Positions 19,136 through 34,786 of a stretch of 64,000 nucleotides of DNA are shown here, in pieces (the first letter of the stretch is position 1; each line of letters opens with the position of its first letter). The notes beneath the pieces were generated by a model. It worked only from the letters and a program-made list of their open reading frames with translations, was not told the origin of the DNA and did no database searches. Source of the DNA: Saccostrea cucullata (taxonomy: Eukaryota); assembly GCF_032062105.1 (NCBI RefSeq), contig NW_026933720.1, positions 124,001-188,000 on the forward strand. The letters run 5' to 3'. Position numbers and translations under genes: made by a program.

Positions 19136-22100
19136 ATGACCACTGCTAAGCGTGTAGCAGTGATTGGGGCGGGAGCTAGTGGACTGACCGCCATTAAATG
19201 TTGTCTGGACGAGGGAATCACCCCTGTTTGTTTTGAGAGGTCAGACTACATAGGTAACCAGATTTACCACTTGGACTGTTGACAAACTGTACTTTTATAT
19301 CTGTATTTTTTTTATTTTCTATCGTCAACTTCCGTTATCTATGTAGCAATATGTAGTAGTATACCCTTATACCTACCTGCAAACAGTTTCTACTTAGAGA
19401 TAAGCAAATTAAACAGTGACATCCACAGTCTCGTTTAAAGTCAAAATTTGACTTTGTGGTCGATATAATGAACTAGTTAGCAAATAAACAAAGTCAAATG
19501 TTGACGAACATTATGTAAACTAATTATTATGGTGTCTGACGATTTTTCACTTAATCCTGTCATGATGACAAGATGCAAACGGCGTTTGTGACTGGCTAAT
19601 ATGGGATGCCTATTCCTCCATGACATCTGATTCCACCTCTGGTGTTTTAGATATCCATGTTTCCTCTGCTCCTAATTCGTTTGGTTCTGATAGACGTTTT
19701 AGCATGGCTATTGTTCGTTTTCTTCATATTTCATAATGAAAGCAAAGTGTTGAATTTTAATGCTCCCTATACGTTGCAGTACTGTAATATCCATTTACTG
19801 CCCCCTTTTATAGGAGGTCTTTGGCACTACACCGATGAGTCACGTGACGGCCAGGCCTGCGTGATGAAGTCCACCGTCATTAACACCAGTAAGGAGATGA
19901 TGTGTTTCAGTGACTTCCCTATTCCCAAGGAGTACCCCATCTTTATGCACAACAAATATGTCCTCAAGTACTTCCACCTGTATGCGGAGAAGTTCGACCT
20001 CACTAAGCACATTAACTTTCAGACAGAGGTAATGAACTTTAACAAAACATAGAGTGTTTTGGAAATAAAGAGGTCTTCTTTTTTGTTTAGATACTCAACT
20101 TGTATGAATAAGAGATAATCTCGCATACCTGCAAATGACATATATATAGTTTCTCAGAAAGGTGTGCTGAGATAAAATCTTGTCCTTCCCCGTAAGTATT
20201 TTGAGGCGAATCCTCTCCATATTTTTAGGTCCTAAGTATCAAGAAACACAACGATTTTAAAAACAATGGATGTTGGGATATCAAAACACGTGATCTAAAA
20301 ACCAATCAAATTAAAGAACAAACGTTTGATGGTGTGTTAGTCTGTACTGGACATCACGCAGAAAAAAATATTCCTACATTTCCAGGTGAGACATTAGACT
20401 GTACATCGAAATTCAAGTCTTTACGTGTATCTTAAGTGAATTTCATTGAACGAAACTCAAACTCTTTATATTCTTAAGGCCTGGATAAGTTCAAGGGAGA
20501 GATAATTCACTCACATGACTACAAAACTCTGAAGGGATACGAGGATAAGCGGATAGTTATTATTGGCATAGGAAATTCGGGAGGAGACGCCGCGGTGGAA
20601 CTCAGTCGTGTAGCTAACCAGGTTCTTAATTCTGTCTTCATCACTATTTAAAGTATTTTTGTTTACTTTTTAAACCATACGTCCAGTTAAACAATAAGCT
20701 TTTCTCTTGTGTAGGTTTTCTTGAGTACACGGCAAGGTTCCTGGGTCATAAATAGAGTAGATAGCTTTGGATATCCAGTGGATATGATGAGGACAACGCA
20801 ATTCAATTTTTGGTAAAACATTTCTTAAAAAAGTAAATGATCTTTACGTCATACCTATTTTCCATGTTATATTCAAAATTAATACCTTAATGCCTTCGTA
20901 AACAGGATGATGCGGAAGATTGTGCCCGCTTCTGTTACTCAATGGATCACCGAAACAAAACTGAACATGAGATTTGATCACGCGCTTTACAGCCTTAAAC
21001 CAAACTTCCCGCCGTTATCCCAGCATCCAACAGTCAACGATGACCTTCCCAATAGAATCATCAGCGGCAACGTCATCGTCAAACCCAACATTAAGTGCTT
21101 TACTGAAACTGGTGTGGAGTTTGAGGATGGTACAAAAGAGGAGAACATTGACGTCGTGTTTTTGGCTACAGGGTATATCTTTGGGTTTCCGTTTTTGGAC
21201 AAGTCTGTACTGGAAGTAAAGGAAAACCGAGTTAATTTGTATAAATGGATGTTCCCACCTGATCTGGAACACAACACATTGGCGGTGATAGGTTGTATAC
21301 AGCCCTTAGGAGCTATCATGCCGCTCTCCGAACAACAATGCCGACTCTACACAAGGGTTTTAAAAGTATGACGTTTCCTTTCAAAGTAGCAGTTAAGACA
21401 ATTTCAAAAGTAGTTTGGAAGTAAAAGAGCACAGATGTGTTCATTTGATTGAAAAATAATGAGCTATAGGTCGTTTCACAATTTCATTACAAACTTTGCA
21501 CATTTGTTTATTTTTTCCTATAAAATAATCCTGTTTTTTTCTTCAGGGTGAAGTGAAGTTACCGCCCTCAAATGAAATGTGGCAAGACATAAAAGATAAA
21601 GTGACAGCGATGGCCAAACGTTACGTTAAGAGCACCCGTCACACGATACAAGTGGACTACGTGGTGTATCTGAACGAGTTAGCTGCCTTGACTGGCAACT
21701 GTCCTGATCTCGGTACGTATTCATTTTCTATGCTCAGTCTCTGTTGTCGTGATCTTATGTAGTCTCTGTAAATATATTGATTTATACAAGGCATCAGTTT
21801 AAATGTCTAGTCTACTTTTAAAAAAATTAGTATCAAAACTTTGGTAAAAAATATTGCAATAATAATATAATGAATAGGAAAAAATGGGTAAATGAATATT
21901 TTTCTCCATTAATGACCAATATTTGTTTATTTTAGTAAAACTGTTTTTCAAAGACCCTCGTCTAGCCATGGCTTGTTTCTTTGGCCCCTGTACACCGTAT
22001 CAGTACCGACTGGTGGGCCCCGGAAAGTGGACAGGTGCCCGGGAGAGCATTCTGACTCAGTGGAACCGGACCTTTTACCCACTGAAAACGCGACCCATGA

Positions 22101-22198
22101 AAAACCCTCCCCGGGAATCCCAGATCACCTTCTTCTTCTTCTTTCTGCTCATTGTTGGGTTGTTTACTTTAACTATTCACTTACTCTTTATGAGATGA
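19136..22198 (+). CDS. FMO: Flavin-containing monooxygenase (FMO5-like, dimethylaniline monooxygenase family), 539 aa. Exons 19136-19253, 19814-20028, 20229-20385, 20479-20621, 20715-20812, 20906-21365, 21547-21712, 21936-22198
   Basis: Spliced length 1620 nt, open. FAD motif [17 protein letters not shown] signature [17 protein letters not shown] motif [21 protein letters not shown] and a C-terminal hydrophobic anchor. An acceptor AG directly before the ATG implies a non-coding first exon (candidate donor at 17897/17898). Confidence 0.95.
19310..19645 (+). mobile_element. Penelope-like 3' fragment in FMO intron
   Basis: Decayed [12 protein letters not shown] / cagtctcgtttaaagtca segment, then the ggcgtttgtgac..tcctccatgacatctgattccacctctg motif. 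Confidence 0.5.
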
Positions 22199-23129
22199 AT
22201 AAATATTAGATTGTGAAACTACTGACAGCTATTGTAGGTGCTCACATGATTGTGTTCTCTGGATATAGCCGAAAAGTCTAAGTGATACGACACTTCTGAA
22301 AAAAAAATTTAATCAAACCAGACATCAAGAAACCAAAACTTTACTGAACAACTTGGAATGGGAAGTGAAAATACATTTTTCCTGTTTTGGATGACATTGT
22401 ACTTATGCTGTTGTATCAATAGAATTTTGGATGAATAGATATTTTATACAACATAAAAGCGTAAATTTGATTATATTCTGATTCTTTTTCATGATATTCA
22501 TGTTGTTTCAGGATATTAAAAAACTGTGATATTTATATATATATATATATATTAATGGACTAGTAAATATTTAATTCAAAATATATTATATTCTTGAATT
22601 ATGTGTTGTTGTTTTCGAAATGAAAGTGAAATTAGAAATTAGAAATAAGCTGTCAAGGCAATCTTGAGAAGTGTAAAACTGTGTATAGAATACATGTAAA
22701 AGTCGTTCAATTTCTTGATTAAAAAATACTTTAATTTAGTGAATAATTTTTAAAGCTAATGTTAAATAATATTATTAAATAAAGATTTGAAATGTTTGTT
22801 CCATTTAAAAAAAAATAAATTCACATATGAAATTTACTTGCGGGAAGAAGATTCTTAATTGCAACACAACTACATACGAATTAAGTACTGCAAATGACCC
22901 AATCTATTAAAACAGTTTACATGTATTAAATATAAAAAAAATAATCAGATTCATTTATATATATTGCTTTTTTATACCCCTACATACGATAAGGAGAAGG
23001 CAAGAGAGCATATTAAATCTTACTTGAACATTTCAATGTATGATAAGGCCTTGTTTTCAAAACCAAAAAAAAAAATCACAGAAATGCTCGCTTTCTTAAA
23101 AGAAAAATGGGATTTTGTGTAGAAGTAAA

Positions 23130-23360
23130 TCTGCTAAATGTTGTGTGATGCGTCTAGTGTGTTGGTGTTGGTGTCTGTGTGCTTGTCACCTCTCGCTTTC
23201 AGCCCTCACTGTTGGCTAGCAACAAAGCGAAACGGGAAGCAATTTGTAAGTCTTCCTCTGCCAGTACATACCCTCTCCACAACAAGTCCTATGCGATGCC
23301 TCCACGTGGAAGCAGACGGATACTGGGCACCTTTCGGCCCCAGGCTAACTTCGCAAGGGC
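23130..23360 (+). ncRNA. HDV-like self-cleaving ribozyme at the 5' end of the RTE element
   Basis: P1 (x)tctgct 23129-23135 / agcagac 23311-23317; P2 gtcctatgcga 23286-23296 / tcgcaagggc 23351-23360; P3 gcc/gga around L3 tccacgt 23301-23307; P1.1 gg 23318-23319; P4 ctggg/cccag; J4/2 gCtaa with putative catalytic C at 23345. Confidence 0.8.
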
Positions 23361-26300
23361 GTGCGGGAAGATGAGGCTCGAAAGCCTTGGTCGGCAACTC
23401 ATCTAGGAGAGAAAACTCTGATTACAATCCGGATTTAGTAGGAGACCGTTAGCAACTACTATGTTGGCCCTCAGACATAAAATTGGGGGTTGGACTTAAG
23501 GCTAATCACCTCCTTCCATAAAAAACAATTGATTACGGAAACCGTTGCAACAATTAGTACCACTGAAAGAAAGGCAAGCGCGACATGCGAGATTCCGGAT
23601 GAGGATAATTACCTTCATTGGGAATTCGAGAGAATGACGGCAATCAGGAAAAGCCGAGAGGACCCTAGCGGCCTGACAGGAACGCAGATGCCATCCATAA
23701 CAACACCTAAAAACATCACTAAGATCGGATGTTGGAACGTAAGAACAATGTTCCAGATTGGAAAAACAGCGAACATCGTAAGAGAGTTTAACAGATATAA
23801 GTTTGACATAATGGGACTGAGCAAAGTCAGATGAACAAGCTTTGGTGAACTTAAGACAACCTCTGGAGAGACCATCTTGTACTCGGGAGCTGAAGAGCAT
23901 CATAGAGGAGTAGGACTTATACTTAGCAGGAAAAGCCGACAGAGCTTGAAGGAATGGAATTCTGTTAATGACAGAATCATCAGCGCACGCTTTTTCTCCC
24001 GCTTTGTTAAGCTAACAATGATACAATTATACTGCCCAACAAACGAGGCAGACGAAGCGGATAAAGACACCTTCTATGAACGGTTTCAAAGAGAGATCGC
24101 AAAAGTGCCAAAACATGACATACTGATGGTAATGGGTGATGCAAATACAAAAGTGGGAAAGTCAAATGAAGGATGGGAAAGAGTCATGGAACAAGAGGGC
24201 ATTGGGATTATGAATGAAAACGGCATGAGGTTAGCAGAAATGTGCGCTCTTAACAATTTAATCATCTGCGGAACCCTCTTTAAGCACCTCGACATACACA
24301 AGCTTACATGGGAGTCACCGATTGGAAGAGATATGAACCAAATTGACCATGTAATGGTGGACGGCAGGTACAAGAAGTCTATATGTGATGTAAGAGTTAT
24401 GCATGGTGCAGATGCCAATTCAGATCACCTTCTAGTATTGGCTAAAATAAAGATGAAGCTCAGCAGAAACTTAAAGCCGAAGGAAAGCAACAGGAAGATG
24501 TATGATGTCAACAAGATGAAAGATCCAAATATAAGCAAAGGATTCCAACTTGAACTAAGGAATAGGTTTCAACAACTGGTCGATGACGAAAGCACAATTA
24601 ATGAAAAATGGACTCTTGCAAAAGAAGCATATAATGAAACAGCGGAAAAGATCATGGGCCAGAAGAAAGGGAAGCACAAAGACTGGCTAACTGCAGAAAA
24701 TAGCAGAGCCATAGACGAAAGGAGAAAACTAAAGGAAGAAATAGGAAGATCAAATTCGGAAAGAATAAAGGAAATCAAGAGAGAAGAATATAAGACCAAA
24801 GACAAAGAAGTGAAAAGAAGAGCAAGAGCTGATAAAAGGGAAAATCTGGAAGATGTAGCTAATCAAGCAGAAAATGCAGCAAACACAAACCGTCTGAATG
24901 AAGTTTACCAACTGATCAAGCAGCTTTGTGGGAGAAAAAGAAACAGGACAAGTGGCATAAGGTCCAAGAATGGTGAACTTTTCATTAAGGATGGAAAAAT
25001 ATTGGAGAGAGGAAAAAGCATTTTGAAGAGGTCCTTAATGTCCCATCAGAAACAACAGATTTACCTGAAGGATGCACCATCCAAGAGAATGAAATTGCAG
25101 AAATTGACACAACACCAATTAGAGAAAAAGAGGTTAAAAAGGCAATCCAAAAAATGAAGAGGGGAAAGAGTCGGCATAGATAACATGAATGCGGAGCTAC
25201 TAAAGGAAAGCGTATCATATTCAACAAACTTATTCAACAGAATCATCAGTGAGCAAGAAATACCAAAAGACTGGAAGAGATCGCTCATTGTCAAAATACC
25301 CAAGAAAGATCTGACAAAATGTGACAATTATAGAGGAATATCACTACTATCAATGTCATCTAAAGTGTTTTGCAGAATAGTGATTGACAGAATTAGAGAT
25401 AGATTAGAGGACAGACTAAGACCAGAGCAAGCTGCATATAGAAGAGGAAGAGGAACATCAGAACAGATTTACATTCTAAGAAATATTTTAGGACAATCTA
25501 TAGAGTGACAAGCACCATTGTACATAAGTTTCATAGATTTAAAAAAAAAGCCTTTGACAGCATAATAAGAGAGTAACTGTGGGATATATTATGGCAGTAT
25601 GGAATTCCGGGCGTGTACGTGGATATCATTATACGATGGTAGTTCTAGTTGTTCATAGAGAATGGAAGAACAACAGACTGGTTCAAAGTACAGACAGGAG
25701 TGAGACAAGGTTGTGTTATGTCTGGGTTCCTGTTCATCATTGTGGTAGACTGGATAATGAGAAATACCAACAATAAGAAGAGAGTCATACGTTGGAAATT
25801 TATGTCCACTTTAGAAGACCTGGATTATGCAGACGACTTTGCACTTCTTTCCAGCAAACACAGCGACATGCAGGAGAAGACCAGGAGATTACATGCTGTC
25901 GCAGAATATACAGGCCTAAAAATTAACGTCGATAAAACAAAAAGCATGAGAATAAATATGAAGAGAAAGGATGCCATCAGGTTGAATGATAAAGAAGTAG
26001 AAGAGGAAGAGGTCGAAACATTTCTCTACCTGGGTGCCAGTGGAAAAGACCGGAGGAACCGAGGCAGATGTTGGGAGAAGGCTAGGCTTAGTCAGGACAG
26101 CCTTTGCATCCCTTGCCAAGGTATGGAAGTCAGCACAATACAGCACAAAGACCAAACTTAAGATCTTCAACACGAACGTTCTATCCGTGTTGCTGTATTG
26201 TGCTGAACTATGGAGAACAACAGAAAAAAACTTGATACATTCCACCGAAAATGCCTTAGAAGAATCCTTAAAATACACTGCCCTGAAAAGATAACTGACC

Positions 26301-26618
26301 AACAACTATATGAAAGAACAAGATCCATACCTCTATCAAGCACTATCAAAAGAAAAAGATGGAGATGGATAGGCCACATCCTGCGAAGGGAAGAGAACTC
26401 ACATGTTAGAACCGCTCTTACATGGGCCCCTGAGGAAAAGAGACGAAGAGGACGGCCGAAGAACACCTGACGACGCTCTGTTGAGAGAGAAAGGGAAGAA
26501 CTGGGCTGGAACAGTTGGAAGGAAGGGCAAGTTGTTGCCTGTGACCGCCGTAAGTGGTGTTCGTTGTTGAACGGCCTCATGCGTCCTCCGGGGACGGAGA
26601 GGATAAGTAAGTAAATAA
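23131..26618 (+). mobile_element. Full-length RTE-clade LINE (APE endonuclease + RT), ORF disrupted by stops and frameshifts
   Basis: IGCWNVRTM, GVGLIL, MGDAN, NQIDH, ANSDH (endonuclease); NYRGISLL, GVRQGC, LDYADD (RT); (TAAG)n-like tail; 14-bp TSD gtgtagaagtaaat at 23117-23130 and 26619-26632; empty site with one copy at 32546-32559. In-frame TGA at 23832-23834. Confidence 0.95.
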
Positions 26619-26959
26619 GTGTAGAAGTAAATGAAGTTAACCATTTTGAGTAGTATAATAAAAGGAGTCAATGGTAATATGGGCAAACAGATTAAAATGG
26701 GGAAGAGGAAATATAACCTTTCCTTCCTGAAGCATGGATTGCTTTAGTGTCCTCGCCCCCTTTAAACAACTCATTCATATACAGTCACCAAATGCAACCC
26801 AAATAAACGCATGAATACAAAGAAAGACGTCTTCATTAATTTTTCAGACCTAATGGAACTATAGGATCCTAGCTTTTATTAAAACTTGCAAAAGATCTCT
26901 GGAGAAACTATTCAAATAATCACTTCAAATTTGATGCTATTATTTAAAGAGGCTTTACT

Positions 26960-27560
26960 TATCTACCTATATATCCGTGACTGTAAATAAGGTTGTTGAT
27001 ATCCCTTTTTCAACAATTTGTTTGTCAATAGCTTGCCTCGTTTTAGAATTTGTTTGTAGATGAAGGATATTCTTAGGTATCAAATCAATTGGTAGATACA
27101 AACCCCATATGCAGCTTATAAGAATGTATTGAGAAATGTTTGCGATGGCTAGAAATGTTGATGTCATCACGTTTATCGTACAATTGCGCTGTTGGTCACC
27201 AATAATGTATTTTCTAGTTAAAAAAAGCCAATATGAAACCGATATTGACGAAACTGCTTACCTGGTATTTTTGTTAAGTTGACTGGAATACATGTATATC
27301 GAGTCGACATATAAATGGAAGTTATTGTTTTTTGATAATACGTCATCAGTATAATTAAATTTAGGGTTGAAGACCACAGCAAGTGTTTCTTCTTTTCATG
27401 CTTAAGATTTTAAAGAAATTTTACTTCATATGAAAAACAGAAATATGTTTACTAATGATGGGACCAGAGCAATTAGAAGCAATGAAAATTCCAACAGATT
27501 TTGGTAGGCTTTATCTCGTATTTCAGATATTTCAAGTAGAAACTCAAACATCTTTTAAAT
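26960..27560 (-). mobile_element. Penelope-like RT remnant (paralog at ~32880-33420)
   Basis: Minus-strand decayed KHLAVVFN, YTDD-like and AYGVCIYQLI readings, homologous to the YISQLIRYAR segment at 57850-58110. Confidence 0.6.
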
Positions 27561-28535
27561 TAATACATGTACAATGTATTAACGTGTACAATCAGAGAGT
27601 TTTTTTTCAACAAAAAAGCAAATGAACAATGCCTAGTTAGTGAATTTATAAATTCCATTTTCATTGAAAAAGCAGGTTATGCAAGGATATTAACAGTCTC
27701 GTTTAAAGTCAACAGTTTTTTGCAAATTATATGGTCGATACAATGACCTTGTCAACAAATACAATTTAGCGCTGACTATTGACTGACTGGCGTTTTTAAT
27801 ATACAGTTTTTGTTCAACTTGATATGGTTTAATAAGAAATGAGAACACTCATTTGTATCGGGAAAATTCTTGCCATAAAATGTTTAGGTATAACCTGAAG
27901 GTAAAAAAAAAATTGTTTACAATTCCACCCCTTACCAATTGCAATCGCTTAGAATGCAAGTAAGATTTGTTCACAGTCCTTAAAGATAAGCTACTGTAGT
28001 TGAAGATGACCCCTATCCAAATTACAACAAAAAGTAGTTATACTAGATTCTTATACAAAATATCGCACCTGGACGTATAATGCTCATGCACGGTTCGTGT
28101 TATTGGTCAACAGGGGATGCTCTCGTCCCCTAGGCACCTGATCCTACTGTTAACATTTCTAGGGGTCAGTTTTTTATGCCCTCTTTGGAGATCTGTATTG
28201 TTTATAGACTTTGTTTTAAGACCAGTCAATGTTCTGTATATAAGGTTCCGTTTGAACTTATACACCCCGTAAAATTAACATATCGATGTACATCGTTCCA
28301 ACAAATAAATGAAATCCAAGGTATTGCACCTTGCATAACCAACTATTACGTAATAATATGACAAAGAGTTATTTGACAAACACTGAACATACATTTTATG
28401 ATTTTAAATGTGATTGAGGAAAATTTACAGCATTTCCAATTCATATACCAACCGCGTTTTATTTGACCACTTGATATGTTTTAATGTAATGCGTAACTCG
28501 TGTTATTTTGTAAATATGTCTTCCTTCTTCACAAA

Positions 28536-31338: not shown

Positions 31339-33778
31339 TTAAAATGTGAAGATTTCGAAATTTTCTTGTTATAAAATCTTATCGCGATAATATCTTTTCT
31401 CTCAAGTTATAAAGATATGCTGAACATAAACCCCATAAAAAGGAGTCACAGATAAAATTCTACATTTAAAAAAACATGATAAAATAAAACAAGTCGGATT
31501 TCACATTTCCTGGCAATATTCCGATATAGAATGTTTATTTCGTCTAAAAAGATTATATTTGAAATTTTTGTATTTTTTTTATATAGATACTTGGCAAAAA
31601 GGGATTGATACGCTGATTGAAAGAAAAATGATGGTCGAGAGTCCCAGCTCGCATTCTTCTTCTTCTTCTTTCTGCTCATTGTTGGGTTGTTTACTTTAAC
31701 TATTCACATACTCTATATCAGATAAATATATATGAGATTGTGAAACTACTGACAGCTATTGTAGGTGATCACATGATTGTGTTCTCTAGATATAGCCGAA
31801 AAGTCTAAGTGATACGACACTTCTGTAAAAAATATGTAATCAAACCTAAGACATCAAGAGGCCAAAACTTAACTAAACAACGTGGAATGGGAAGTGAAAA
31901 TCAAAACATTTTTCCCGTTTGGATGACATTGTACTTATGCTGTTGTACCAATGGAGTTATAGATGTATAGATATTTTATACAACAAAAAATCATTAATTT
32001 GATTATATTCTGAATCTTGTTCATGATATTCATGTTGTTTCAGGATGTTGAAAAACTGTGATATTTATATATATATATTAATGTACTAGTAAATATTTAA
32101 TTTAAAATACATTATATTCTTGAAGTTTGTCTTGTTGTTGTTTTCAAAATGAAAATGAAATTAAAAATAAGCTGTCAAGACAATCTTGAGAAGTGTAACA
32201 CTGTGTATAGAATACATGTAAAAGTCGTTCAATTTCTTGATTAAAAATACTTCAATTTAGTGAATAATTGTTAAAGATGAAGTTAAATAATATTATTACA
32301 TAAAGATTTGAAATGTTTGTTCCAATTTTAAAAAATAGAATTCACATATGAAATTTACTTGCAGAATGAAGATAAAAAATAATCAGATTCGTTTATATAT
32401 CTTACTTTTATATACTCCTACATACGATAAGGAGAAGCCAAGGGATCATAAAAAATCTTACTTAAACATTTCAATCTATGATAAGGCCTTGTTTTCAAAA
32501 CCGAAAAAAGCACAGAAATGCTCGCTTTCTTAAAAAAAGGATATTGTGTAGAAGTAAATGACATTTATCATTTTGAGTTGTCTGATAAGAGGAGTCAATG
32601 GTAATGTGGGCAAACAGATCAAAATGAGGAAACATAGCCTTTCCTTCCCGAAGCATGGATTGTTTTAGTGTCCTTGCCTCCCTTCAAACAACTCACTCAT
32701 ATACAGTCACCAAATGCAACCCAAATGAACGCATGAATACAAAGAACGACGGCTTCATCAATTTTTCAGACCTACTGAAACTCTAGGATCCTAGCTTTTA
32801 TTAAAACTTGCAAAAGATCTCTGGAGAAATATTCCAATAACCACTCCAAATTTTATGCTAGTATTTAAAGAGGCTTTACTTATCTGCCAATATATCCGTG
32901 ACTGTAAAAAAAAGTTTTTGATATCCCTTTTTCATCAACTTGCTTGTCAATAGCTTGCCTCGTTTTAGAATTTGTTTGTAGGTAAAGGATATTCTTAGGC
33001 ATCAAATCAATTGGTAGATATAAACCCCATATGCAGGTTATAACAATATATTGAGAAATGTTTGCGATGGCTAGAATTGTTGATGTCATCACGTTTATCG
33101 TACAATTATGCTGTTGGTCACCAATAATGTATTTTCTAGTAAAAAAAAGAAAGGCCAATATGAAACCGATATTGACGAGTCTGTTTTACCTGTCGACATA
33201 TAAATGGAAGTTATTGTTTTTTGATAATACGTCGATCATCAATATAGTTAAATTTAGGATTGAAGACCACACCAAGTGTTTCTTCTTTTCATGCCTAAGA
33301 TTTTTTTGAAGAAATTGTACTTCATATGAAAAACAGAAATATGTTTACTAATGATGGGACCAGAGCAATTAGAAGCAATGAAAATTCCAACAGATTTTGG
33401 TAGGCTTTATCTCGAAAACCTTTATATTTTCAAGTAGAAACTCAAACATCTTTTTAATTAATACATGTACAATGTATTAACGTGTACAATCAGAGATTTT
33501 TTTGTAACAAAAAGCAAATGAACAATGCCTTGGTAAGTGAATTTATGAATTCCATTTTCATTGAAAAAGCAGCTTATGCAAAGATATTAGCAGTTTCGTT
33601 TAAAGTCAACAGTTTTTGCAGATTATATTATTTATCGCTGAGCTGACTATTGTCTGACTGGCGTTTTTAATATAAAGTTTTTGTTCAACTTGATATGGTT
33701 AAATAAGAAATGAGAACACTCATTTGTATCGGGAAAATTCTTGCCATAAAATATTTAGGTATACCTGAAGGTAAATAA

Positions 33779-34157
33779 GGCCATTCAAAGTTTTTTCTCT
33801 GTTTAGCGTCCACCCATCTTTCAAAAACCTACCTACCTATTCGCAAAAAACACAAACCAAAACATAAAACACAGGCTTAAAAGTCATAAAAATGACGCCC
33901 TTCAAATGATTTGATCTAACTAGACTGCATTAATAGAAGATATATCTATTCTTAAGCAAAAACAAGGGATTAAATGCATAACATACACCGAATATAACTT
34001 ACTGTACAGAATTAATTTGGAGAAATTGACAAAATTAAAAAATTTCGACTAAAGTAATCAATTTCAGGACTCCTGATGTTGTGTGTTTTTTCTTACATGG
34101 AATGTCAAAAACCAAGATGCATGCGGACGCTAAACATAGAAAAAACTTGGAATGGCC
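33779..34157. mobile_element. PIF/Harbinger-type (Tourist-like) MITE
   Basis: TIR GGCCATTCAAAGTTTTT..TGTTTAGCGTCC / GGACGCTAAACA..AAAAACTTGGAATGGCC with TAA on both sides; absent from unit A (~27905). Confidence 0.75.
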
Positions 34158-34786
34158 TAAAATTGTTTACAATTCCACCCCTTACCAATTGCAATAGCTT
34201 AGAATGCATGTAAGATTTGTTCACGGTCCTAAAAGATAAGCTAATGTAGTTGAATATAACCCCTACCCAAATTACAACAAAAAGTAAAGTTATACTAGAT
34301 ACTTATACATTACAAAATATCGCAGCTGGACGTATAGTGCTCACAGTATGTGTTATTGGTCAACAGGGGATGCTCTCGTCCCCTAGGCTGATCCTACTGT
34401 TAACATTTCTGGGGGTCAGTTTTTTATGCCCTCTTTGGAGATCTGTATTGTTTATAGACTTTGTTTTAGGACCAGTCAGTGTTCTTATATTAGGTTCCGT
34501 TTGAACCTATACACCCCGTAAAATTAAAAATATCAATGTACATCGTTCGAACACATAAATGAAAGCCAAGGTATTGCACCTTGCATTACCAACTATTACG
34601 TAATAATATGACAAAGATTTATTTGACAAACACTGAACATACATTTTATGATTTTAAATGTGATTGAGGAAAATTTACAGCATTTCTATTTCATATAGCA
34701 ACCGCGTTTTATTTGACCACTTGATATGTTTTAATGTAATGCGTTCTCGTGTAAGTTTTTTTAAATATGTCTTCCTTCTTCACAAA

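Follow-up and report, generated by a model that had tools for sequence, protein, structure and literature searches.

A variant HDV-like fold, most likely a self-cleaving ribozyme, marks the 5' end of an RTE-type LINE family in Saccostrea cucullata

The window, which is the whole 64,000-nucleotide stretch of DNA analysed here, carries the exons of a flavin-containing monooxygenase (positions 19651-22198, + strand) and, on the same strand and about 930 bp behind the end of that gene, a 3.49-kb LINE of RTE build (23130/23131-26618). The LINE is located between two matching 14-bp target-site duplications (TSDs), at 23117..23130 and 26619..26632 of the + strand. The same 14-mer is found a third time at 32546..32559 (+), in a tandem duplicate of the flanks, where it represents an empty paralogous target site. 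The boundary of the element could be fixed directly because this duplicate of the flanks lacks the element. The tandem duplication (22112-28200 and 31636-34450, 86-90% identity) covers the end of the monooxygenase region, and its second copy (31636-34450) is without the LINE.

A single reading frame for endonuclease and reverse transcriptase occupies 23481..26606 (+); in the window copy it is interrupted by stops and frameshifts, and the reverse transcriptase domain (RVT_1) was detected in two pieces. The element ends in a 3' tail of short TAAG-type repeats (26604..26618, +). Its closest copy in the genome is 92% identical over 3.5 kb. The endonuclease domain was detected in a sister copy (L061), and the frame of a more distant relative (L106) is intact over 1018 aa. 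The RTE elements are about 3-4 kb long and bordered by TSDs, and short tandem repeats close their very short 3' UTR; all of these traits are present in the window element. The combination of an AP endonuclease and a reverse transcriptase in one frame with no ORF1, also an RTE trait, was found across the pieces of the window copy, L061 and L106. The assignment to the RTE clade rests on this build and on the kinship with L106 (56% identity in the endonuclease), and no database match was named RTE. Of the 23 letters of the RTE 5' UTR motif printed in PMC5786205, 20 occur consecutively in L106, a type B element, and inspection by eye did not reveal the motif in the 5' UTR of the window copy.

The first 230 bases of the element can be folded into an HDV-type double pseudoknot, which is predicted to be self-cleaving. 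When the sequence was registered by hand, every helix named in the initial annotation was located where it had been placed, in the order of a nested double pseudoknot and on the + strand. The 5' strand of P1 (23129..23135) opens at a position, +1, that is a host A in the window copy and a G in most copies of the family, and nucleotides 2-7 of P1 are at 23130-23135. P1 is followed by the J1/2 peripheral domain (23136..23285), which contains hand-registered compensatory pairs and whose length, announced as about 150 nt, was measured as 150 nt. The 5' strand of P2 (23286..23296) pairs with its 3' strand (23351..23360) over 10 bp with one bulged A. The P3-L3-P3' segment (23298..23310) is made of P3 5' (23298-23300), a 7-nt L3 (23301-23307) and P3 3' (23308-23310), and it leads into the 3' strand of P1 (23311-23317) and the GG of P1.1 (23318-23319), which together occupy 23311..23319. 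The P4 hairpin (23323..23343, pairing 23323-23327 with 23339-23343) shows a compensatory C-G/U-A change with respect to the type B heads described below. In J4/2 (23344..23350) the descriptor places the predicted catalytic base at C23345, and a C is kept at this position in 18/18 LINE copies of the family; C23345 would be the residue that acts in catalysis. P1 has seven pairs in the family, starting with a G-C pair, and six in the window copy, in which the host A is opposite the C at +1.

Comparison of this fold with known HDV-like ribozymes showed a P1 of 6-7 bp opening with a purine-pyrimidine pair at the cut site, the order P1-P2-P3-L3-P3'-P1'-P1.1-P4-J4/2-P2', a 7-nt L3 with U-C-C...G together with the GG of P1.1, and a catalytic C in J4/2 (C23345) followed by N-R-A. 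The three canonical P3 pairs of the usual form were found neither in the family of the window element (type A) nor in type B: P3 of the window copy consists of two C-G pairs and an outer G23298 opposite A23310. Because P3 is without three canonical pairs, the predicted fold is filed as an HDV-like variant and not as a standard member. J1/2 is predicted to be closed by a P1.2-like helix (23140-23145 with 23278-23283) and to hold a three-way junction that is conserved in types A-D, and its folding energy was not clearly better than that of shuffles (z of -0.63 for the window copy and -1.76 for copy L002). A hammerhead reading of this junction was rejected, the core motif being absent by eye.

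A relaxed HDV descriptor, composed after the sequence had been viewed and leaving +1 and the outer P3 pair unconstrained, gave a single match in the 64-kb window, exactly at the ribozyme and with its catalytic position at C23345; the same descriptor matched in 7/100 shuffles of the window and in 1/5000 shuffles of the 501-nt 5' region. A strict descriptor, with a canonical P3 and a purine at +1, missed the window copy. The Rfam model RF01787 (drz-agam-1) scored 18.2 bits on 23276-23359 (E 1.3), below its gathering score of 37, and a genome-wide search with RF01787 returned no match, as did its controls. Genome-wide, the core pattern was matched 275 times vs 8 times for the reversed control.

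HDV-like ribozymes on RTEs are already established (PMC6765202, PMC5786205), and 5' ribozymes are carried by RTE, R1, R2, R4, Ingi and LOA retrotransposons (PMC5786205). The fold described here resembles that of drz-Agam-2-1 in its nested double pseudoknot at the 5' end, its long P2, its large structured J1/2 with a P1.2-like closure and the C-N-R-A of J4/2 (PMC6765202, PMC5786205, PMC4908430). Unlike drz-Agam-2-1, its outer P3 position is fixed as G-A (type A) or U-U (type B), +1 of type A forms G-C rather than G-U, the sequence of J1/2 is unrelated as far as tested, and the Rfam score of drz-agam-1 is below threshold. The structured J1/2 of drz-Agam-2-1 speeds that ribozyme by bringing P1 and P2 together (PMC4908430), and an R2 ribozyme with a P3 mismatch, that of the jewel wasp, cleaves up to 32% (PMC3774820). 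The 150-nt J1/2 of the present family may pinch P1 and P2 together, which would offset a P3 of only two canonical pairs.

The genome search for the family scored 40 of 178 candidates, 30 of which became loci, and nearly all of these begin at the same base. P1 and P2 were kept in the family, with no extension 5' of P1, so that the sequence checks by which the annotation could have been refuted did not refute it. At +1, the 18 LINE copies of type A have G (12 copies), A (2), T (2) or C (1), the end being absent from the remaining one, and position -1 is variable; a G is present at +1 in 12/12 copies of a shorter passenger form described below. Among the 11 copies with both ends in the fetched DNA, and with one TSD mismatch allowed, the TSD ends exactly before +1 in 8, and 7 of these 8 have G at +1. 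The absence of G+1 that had been reported is thus true of the window copy and is not the state of the family. The G-A mismatch of P3 noted in the annotation is likewise real, and it was found in all 18 LINE copies and all 12 passenger copies. Decay of the window copy as its cause is therefore ruled out.

The start of the element at the end of the left TSD coincides with P1, in agreement with the TSDs and with the empty site at 32546. A23129 is host DNA, and T23130, the last base of the left TSD and nucleotide 2 of P1, can be read as host or as element, so that the first base of the window copy's own sequence is +2 or +3. The description of this fold as defining the exact 5' end thus holds for the family and fails for the window copy, whose junction is 1-2 nt short of the predicted cut site. 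The loss of G+1 concerns this copy and not the family; it would be accounted for if the 5' junction had been joined through a one-base microhomology. For R2 elements whose cut is at the end of the element itself, microhomology joining has been proposed (PMC3774820). The R2 ribozymes are similar to the present family in their proposed 5' processing, their variable microhomology 5' junctions and their active member with a P3 mismatch; R2 is rDNA-specific and has a restriction-like endonuclease, whereas this family is found at unrelated sites, with target duplications and an AP endonuclease (PMC3774820). In the CPEB3 ribozyme, a G1A change lowered activity from 92% to 3% (PMC8233481), which suggests that the ribozyme of the window copy is probably weak. 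Given its interrupted reading frame and the host A that faces the C at +1, this copy is probably a weakened relic.

Besides its own body, the type A head was present on short two-ended derivatives (L004, L006 and L018) and on a 316-nt satellite-repeat passenger; among the 38 loci examined it was on no other body. Short two-ended derivatives of about 430-850 bp (L004, L006, L018, L231, L234 and L227) retain the 3' tail together with the ribozyme end, and several lie between TSDs. L004, L006, L018 and L227 are comparable to the bipartite non-autonomous RTEs, with a ribozyme end and a 3' end between TSDs (PMC5786205), unlike the window copy, which is full length. The passenger is a 5' fragment of type A of about 316 nt that contains the whole ribozyme and occurs in many copies behind a common CTAACAA-rich tract among satellite arrays, with no RTE body nearby (L019-L030, L032, L035-L039, L042, L043, L045, L048, L050, L051 and L056; for example L051:1330-1642).

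The passenger is also the form of the ribozyme that was detected in RNA-seq (three runs of one study, from an oligo-dT, unstranded library), and the ribozyme reads came mostly from passenger copies. Twenty runs contained part of the 64-kb stretch, each with a small share. On L051, where +1 is near 1329, the summed depth fell from 26-40 just upstream to 0.6-2.5 in the bin of +1 and rose to 10-14 in the next bin, then to 21-27 and up to 38-52 at the core, and the dip at +1 was present in 3/3 runs. Three reads of one run cross the +1 site uncut, no pile-up of read starts was listed at +1, and the upstream reads on L051 carry other variants and may stem from other repeats. This profile is weakly consistent with RNA 5' ends near +1, and would equally be expected of a start site. 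For read-through from the monooxygenase gene into the window copy, no coverage was found over about 22650-23130 except for about one read per run.

Related heads, types B-E, are present on other RTE-built families of the same genome, and each family starts at its own P1. Type B shares the 5' strand of P1 with type A and has a G-U pair at +1 instead of G-C, U-U at the outer P3 position in 24/25 copies, a small hairpin inserted between P2 and P3 and an A at the last position of L3. In types C and D the P1 sequences are different and P3 is canonical; type E has a P1 of 6 bp. A G is present at +1 in 18/25 type B copies, in 5 of the 6 scored copies of type C (4 more were unscored) and in 5/5 copies of type D. 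Position -1 varies across types, unlike +1. The sequence of P1 differs between types yet remains paired, and compensatory changes between types were found in the P1, P2, P4 and J1/2 helices, those of P2 and P4 being between types A and B. These changes come from pairs registered by hand, as the MAFFT alignment misregisters P1 and P2 across types. Two other registers for the P3 mismatch are each in keeping with one compensatory change: P3 with a bulge, which would pair U-A in A and A-U in B, and a longer P2, which would pair G-C in A and U-A in B. Neither the 12 passenger copies nor type D allow the longer P2. A register with an 8-bp P1 fits some copies only.

Forty further RTE 5' regions of the same genome contained only type E, one type B, one type C fragment and one unclear fold. 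The type E heads are 75-98% identical and lead into several endonuclease types; in some lineages (L102, L113, L171, L172, L174, L175 and L180) their L3 is longer by 2-3 U. Metagenome relatives were collected by endonuclease (80 loci, 74 scanned) and gave two descriptor matches, one of them convincing (L260). No J1/2 of this kind and no additional member of the family was found among the 74 scanned relatives, many of which are short or truncated. Other HDV-like folds were observed: a very compact one before another RTE-type frame (L124, oriented 1263-1330) and an unclear one at about 1014 of L209; compact folds with a G-U at +1 and a canonical P3 in AT-rich DNA (L031, L033, L034, L041, L044, L052 and L057); and compact canonical folds in back-to-back pairs 1-10 kb apart (L330:3879 and 5316; L331:3326, 4582, 6569 and 7825). 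The back-to-back folds are on G000 contigs C3323 and C7273, with similar pairs on C3727, C5976, C6069, C6925 and C7314. A frame that encodes a PHD finger and weakly matches OTU occupies the middle of L330, and each fold is followed by related frames.

At least five different endonucleases follow the best 25 type B heads. Full-length type B loci fall into five lineages (B1-B5), each with several copies and its own 3' tail, and a TSD adjoins the lineage-specific tail in 13/22 copies, all five lineages being represented. The type B ribozymes are 90-96% identical across lineages while the endonucleases are 26-74% identical. In most pairs, identity falls from 84-98% to about 40-60% at a breakpoint 345-415 nt in; the step is abrupt at about 345 nt for B4 and at 400-415 nt for B1/B2, and more gradual in B1/B3 and B3/B5. 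A single clade of the five type B endonucleases was rejected (p-AU 9e-6), in a test of a group defined after a smaller tree had been viewed, with a long B4 branch and L118 standing in for B5.

From these near-identical heads, divergent endonucleases and abrupt breakpoints we infer that RTE lineages are likely able to exchange a 5' module, made of the ribozyme and 100-170 nt, through template jumping or recombination. The type A head of the window element is without this swap pattern among the 38 loci examined. For type B only, the heads could also have been kept alike, with no swap of a module, if old lineages were under strong purifying selection or underwent gene conversion with one another; the 5' termini of fish, frog and lizard L1 elements are conserved across divergent families (PMC5381506), and the type B head subtypes differ slightly by lineage. 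We nevertheless consider this unlikely, since the heads of B1 and B4 are 93% identical over 244 nt including loops vs 27% for their endonucleases, since lineage A, closer to B1 in its endonuclease (56%), has a head only 74% identical to that of B1, and since the breakpoints are abrupt. The exchange that we favour would mean, with fair probability, that the RTEs of this genome trade a ribozyme-bearing 5' cassette and that a head with a non-canonical P3, carried by five coexisting protein-coding lineages (down to 27% endonuclease identity), is a mobile module that rescues or boosts the lineage capturing it, in the manner of L1 promoter swaps.

Such an exchange has likenesses in known systems. 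In the R2/R1 hybrid SIDEs of Drosophila, a ribozyme head was moved onto the 3' part of another retrotransposon and the hybrid is still mobile, but the SIDEs are short and protein-less while the type B head is on full-length protein-coding bodies of five lineages (PMC3414825). Replacement of the 5' UTR in mammalian L1 also gave new 5' ends to a coding body that was kept; L1 recruits unrelated promoters lineage by lineage, whereas here one ribozyme head is common to coexisting lineages (PMC5381506).

The start of P1 is the insertion boundary across copies and across the five ribozyme types. In substance the initial annotation holds, and we consider it highly probable that the HDV-type fold marks the 5' end of the LINE family, most likely as a self-cleaving ribozyme. 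The ribozyme would cut the RNA of the element from longer host transcripts just before G+1, and the cut RNA would be reverse-transcribed up to its end; the window copy itself, as had been proposed, may have been derived from such a self-cleaved RNA.

The 5' end could instead be set by an internal Pol II promoter, with G+1 as a copy of the cap and the fold as a relic or an element for translation or protein binding only. Copying of the cap yields a junction G, as in L1, so that this G is also expected here, the RNA-seq cannot distinguish initiation from cleavage, types A and B have an imperfect P3, and J1/2 contains unpaired motifs that are conserved across types. This explanation is nonetheless very improbable: in every type the partner of G+1, in a G-C or G-U pair, is the base that directly precedes P1.1, the element boundary is where each of five different P1 sequences opens, and the catalytic C, P1.1 and L3 are retained in young type B copies with an intact 1018-aa frame. 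Least probable of all is a ribozyme that was active in an ancestor, as in types C and D with their canonical P3, and is crippled in types A and B, which would transpose from other 5' ends; the outer G-A and U-U of P3, and in type B the P2-P3 hairpin and the A in L3, would fit such a loss, but type A and B copies still start at +1, P2 and P4 differ between the two types by compensatory changes, and L106 matches another type B copy, L223, at 99.5% identity over 3.6 kb.

The pairing of a ribozyme with an RTE is known; the present case is a variant chiefly through the head common to distant full-length lineages, and also through its fixed P3 mismatch and conserved J1/2 domain. Our literature search, largely among non-subscription papers, located no report of this family, of a fixed P3 mismatch in an RTE or of head swapping among full-length RTEs. 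If the reading of a ribozyme is true, recently mobile HDV-like ribozymes with a fixed outer-P3 mismatch escape strict descriptors and Rfam, and such heads may be undercounted. Types A-D would provide a natural series (G-A, U-U, G-C) for how much P3 matters in the presence of a structured J1/2. A head common to distant full-length lineages would mean that the enzyme and the 5' processing module evolve separately, which is relevant to the way in which LINE lineages truncated at the 5' end recover a functional start, and to selecting 5' modules when retrotransposons are used for gene insertion.
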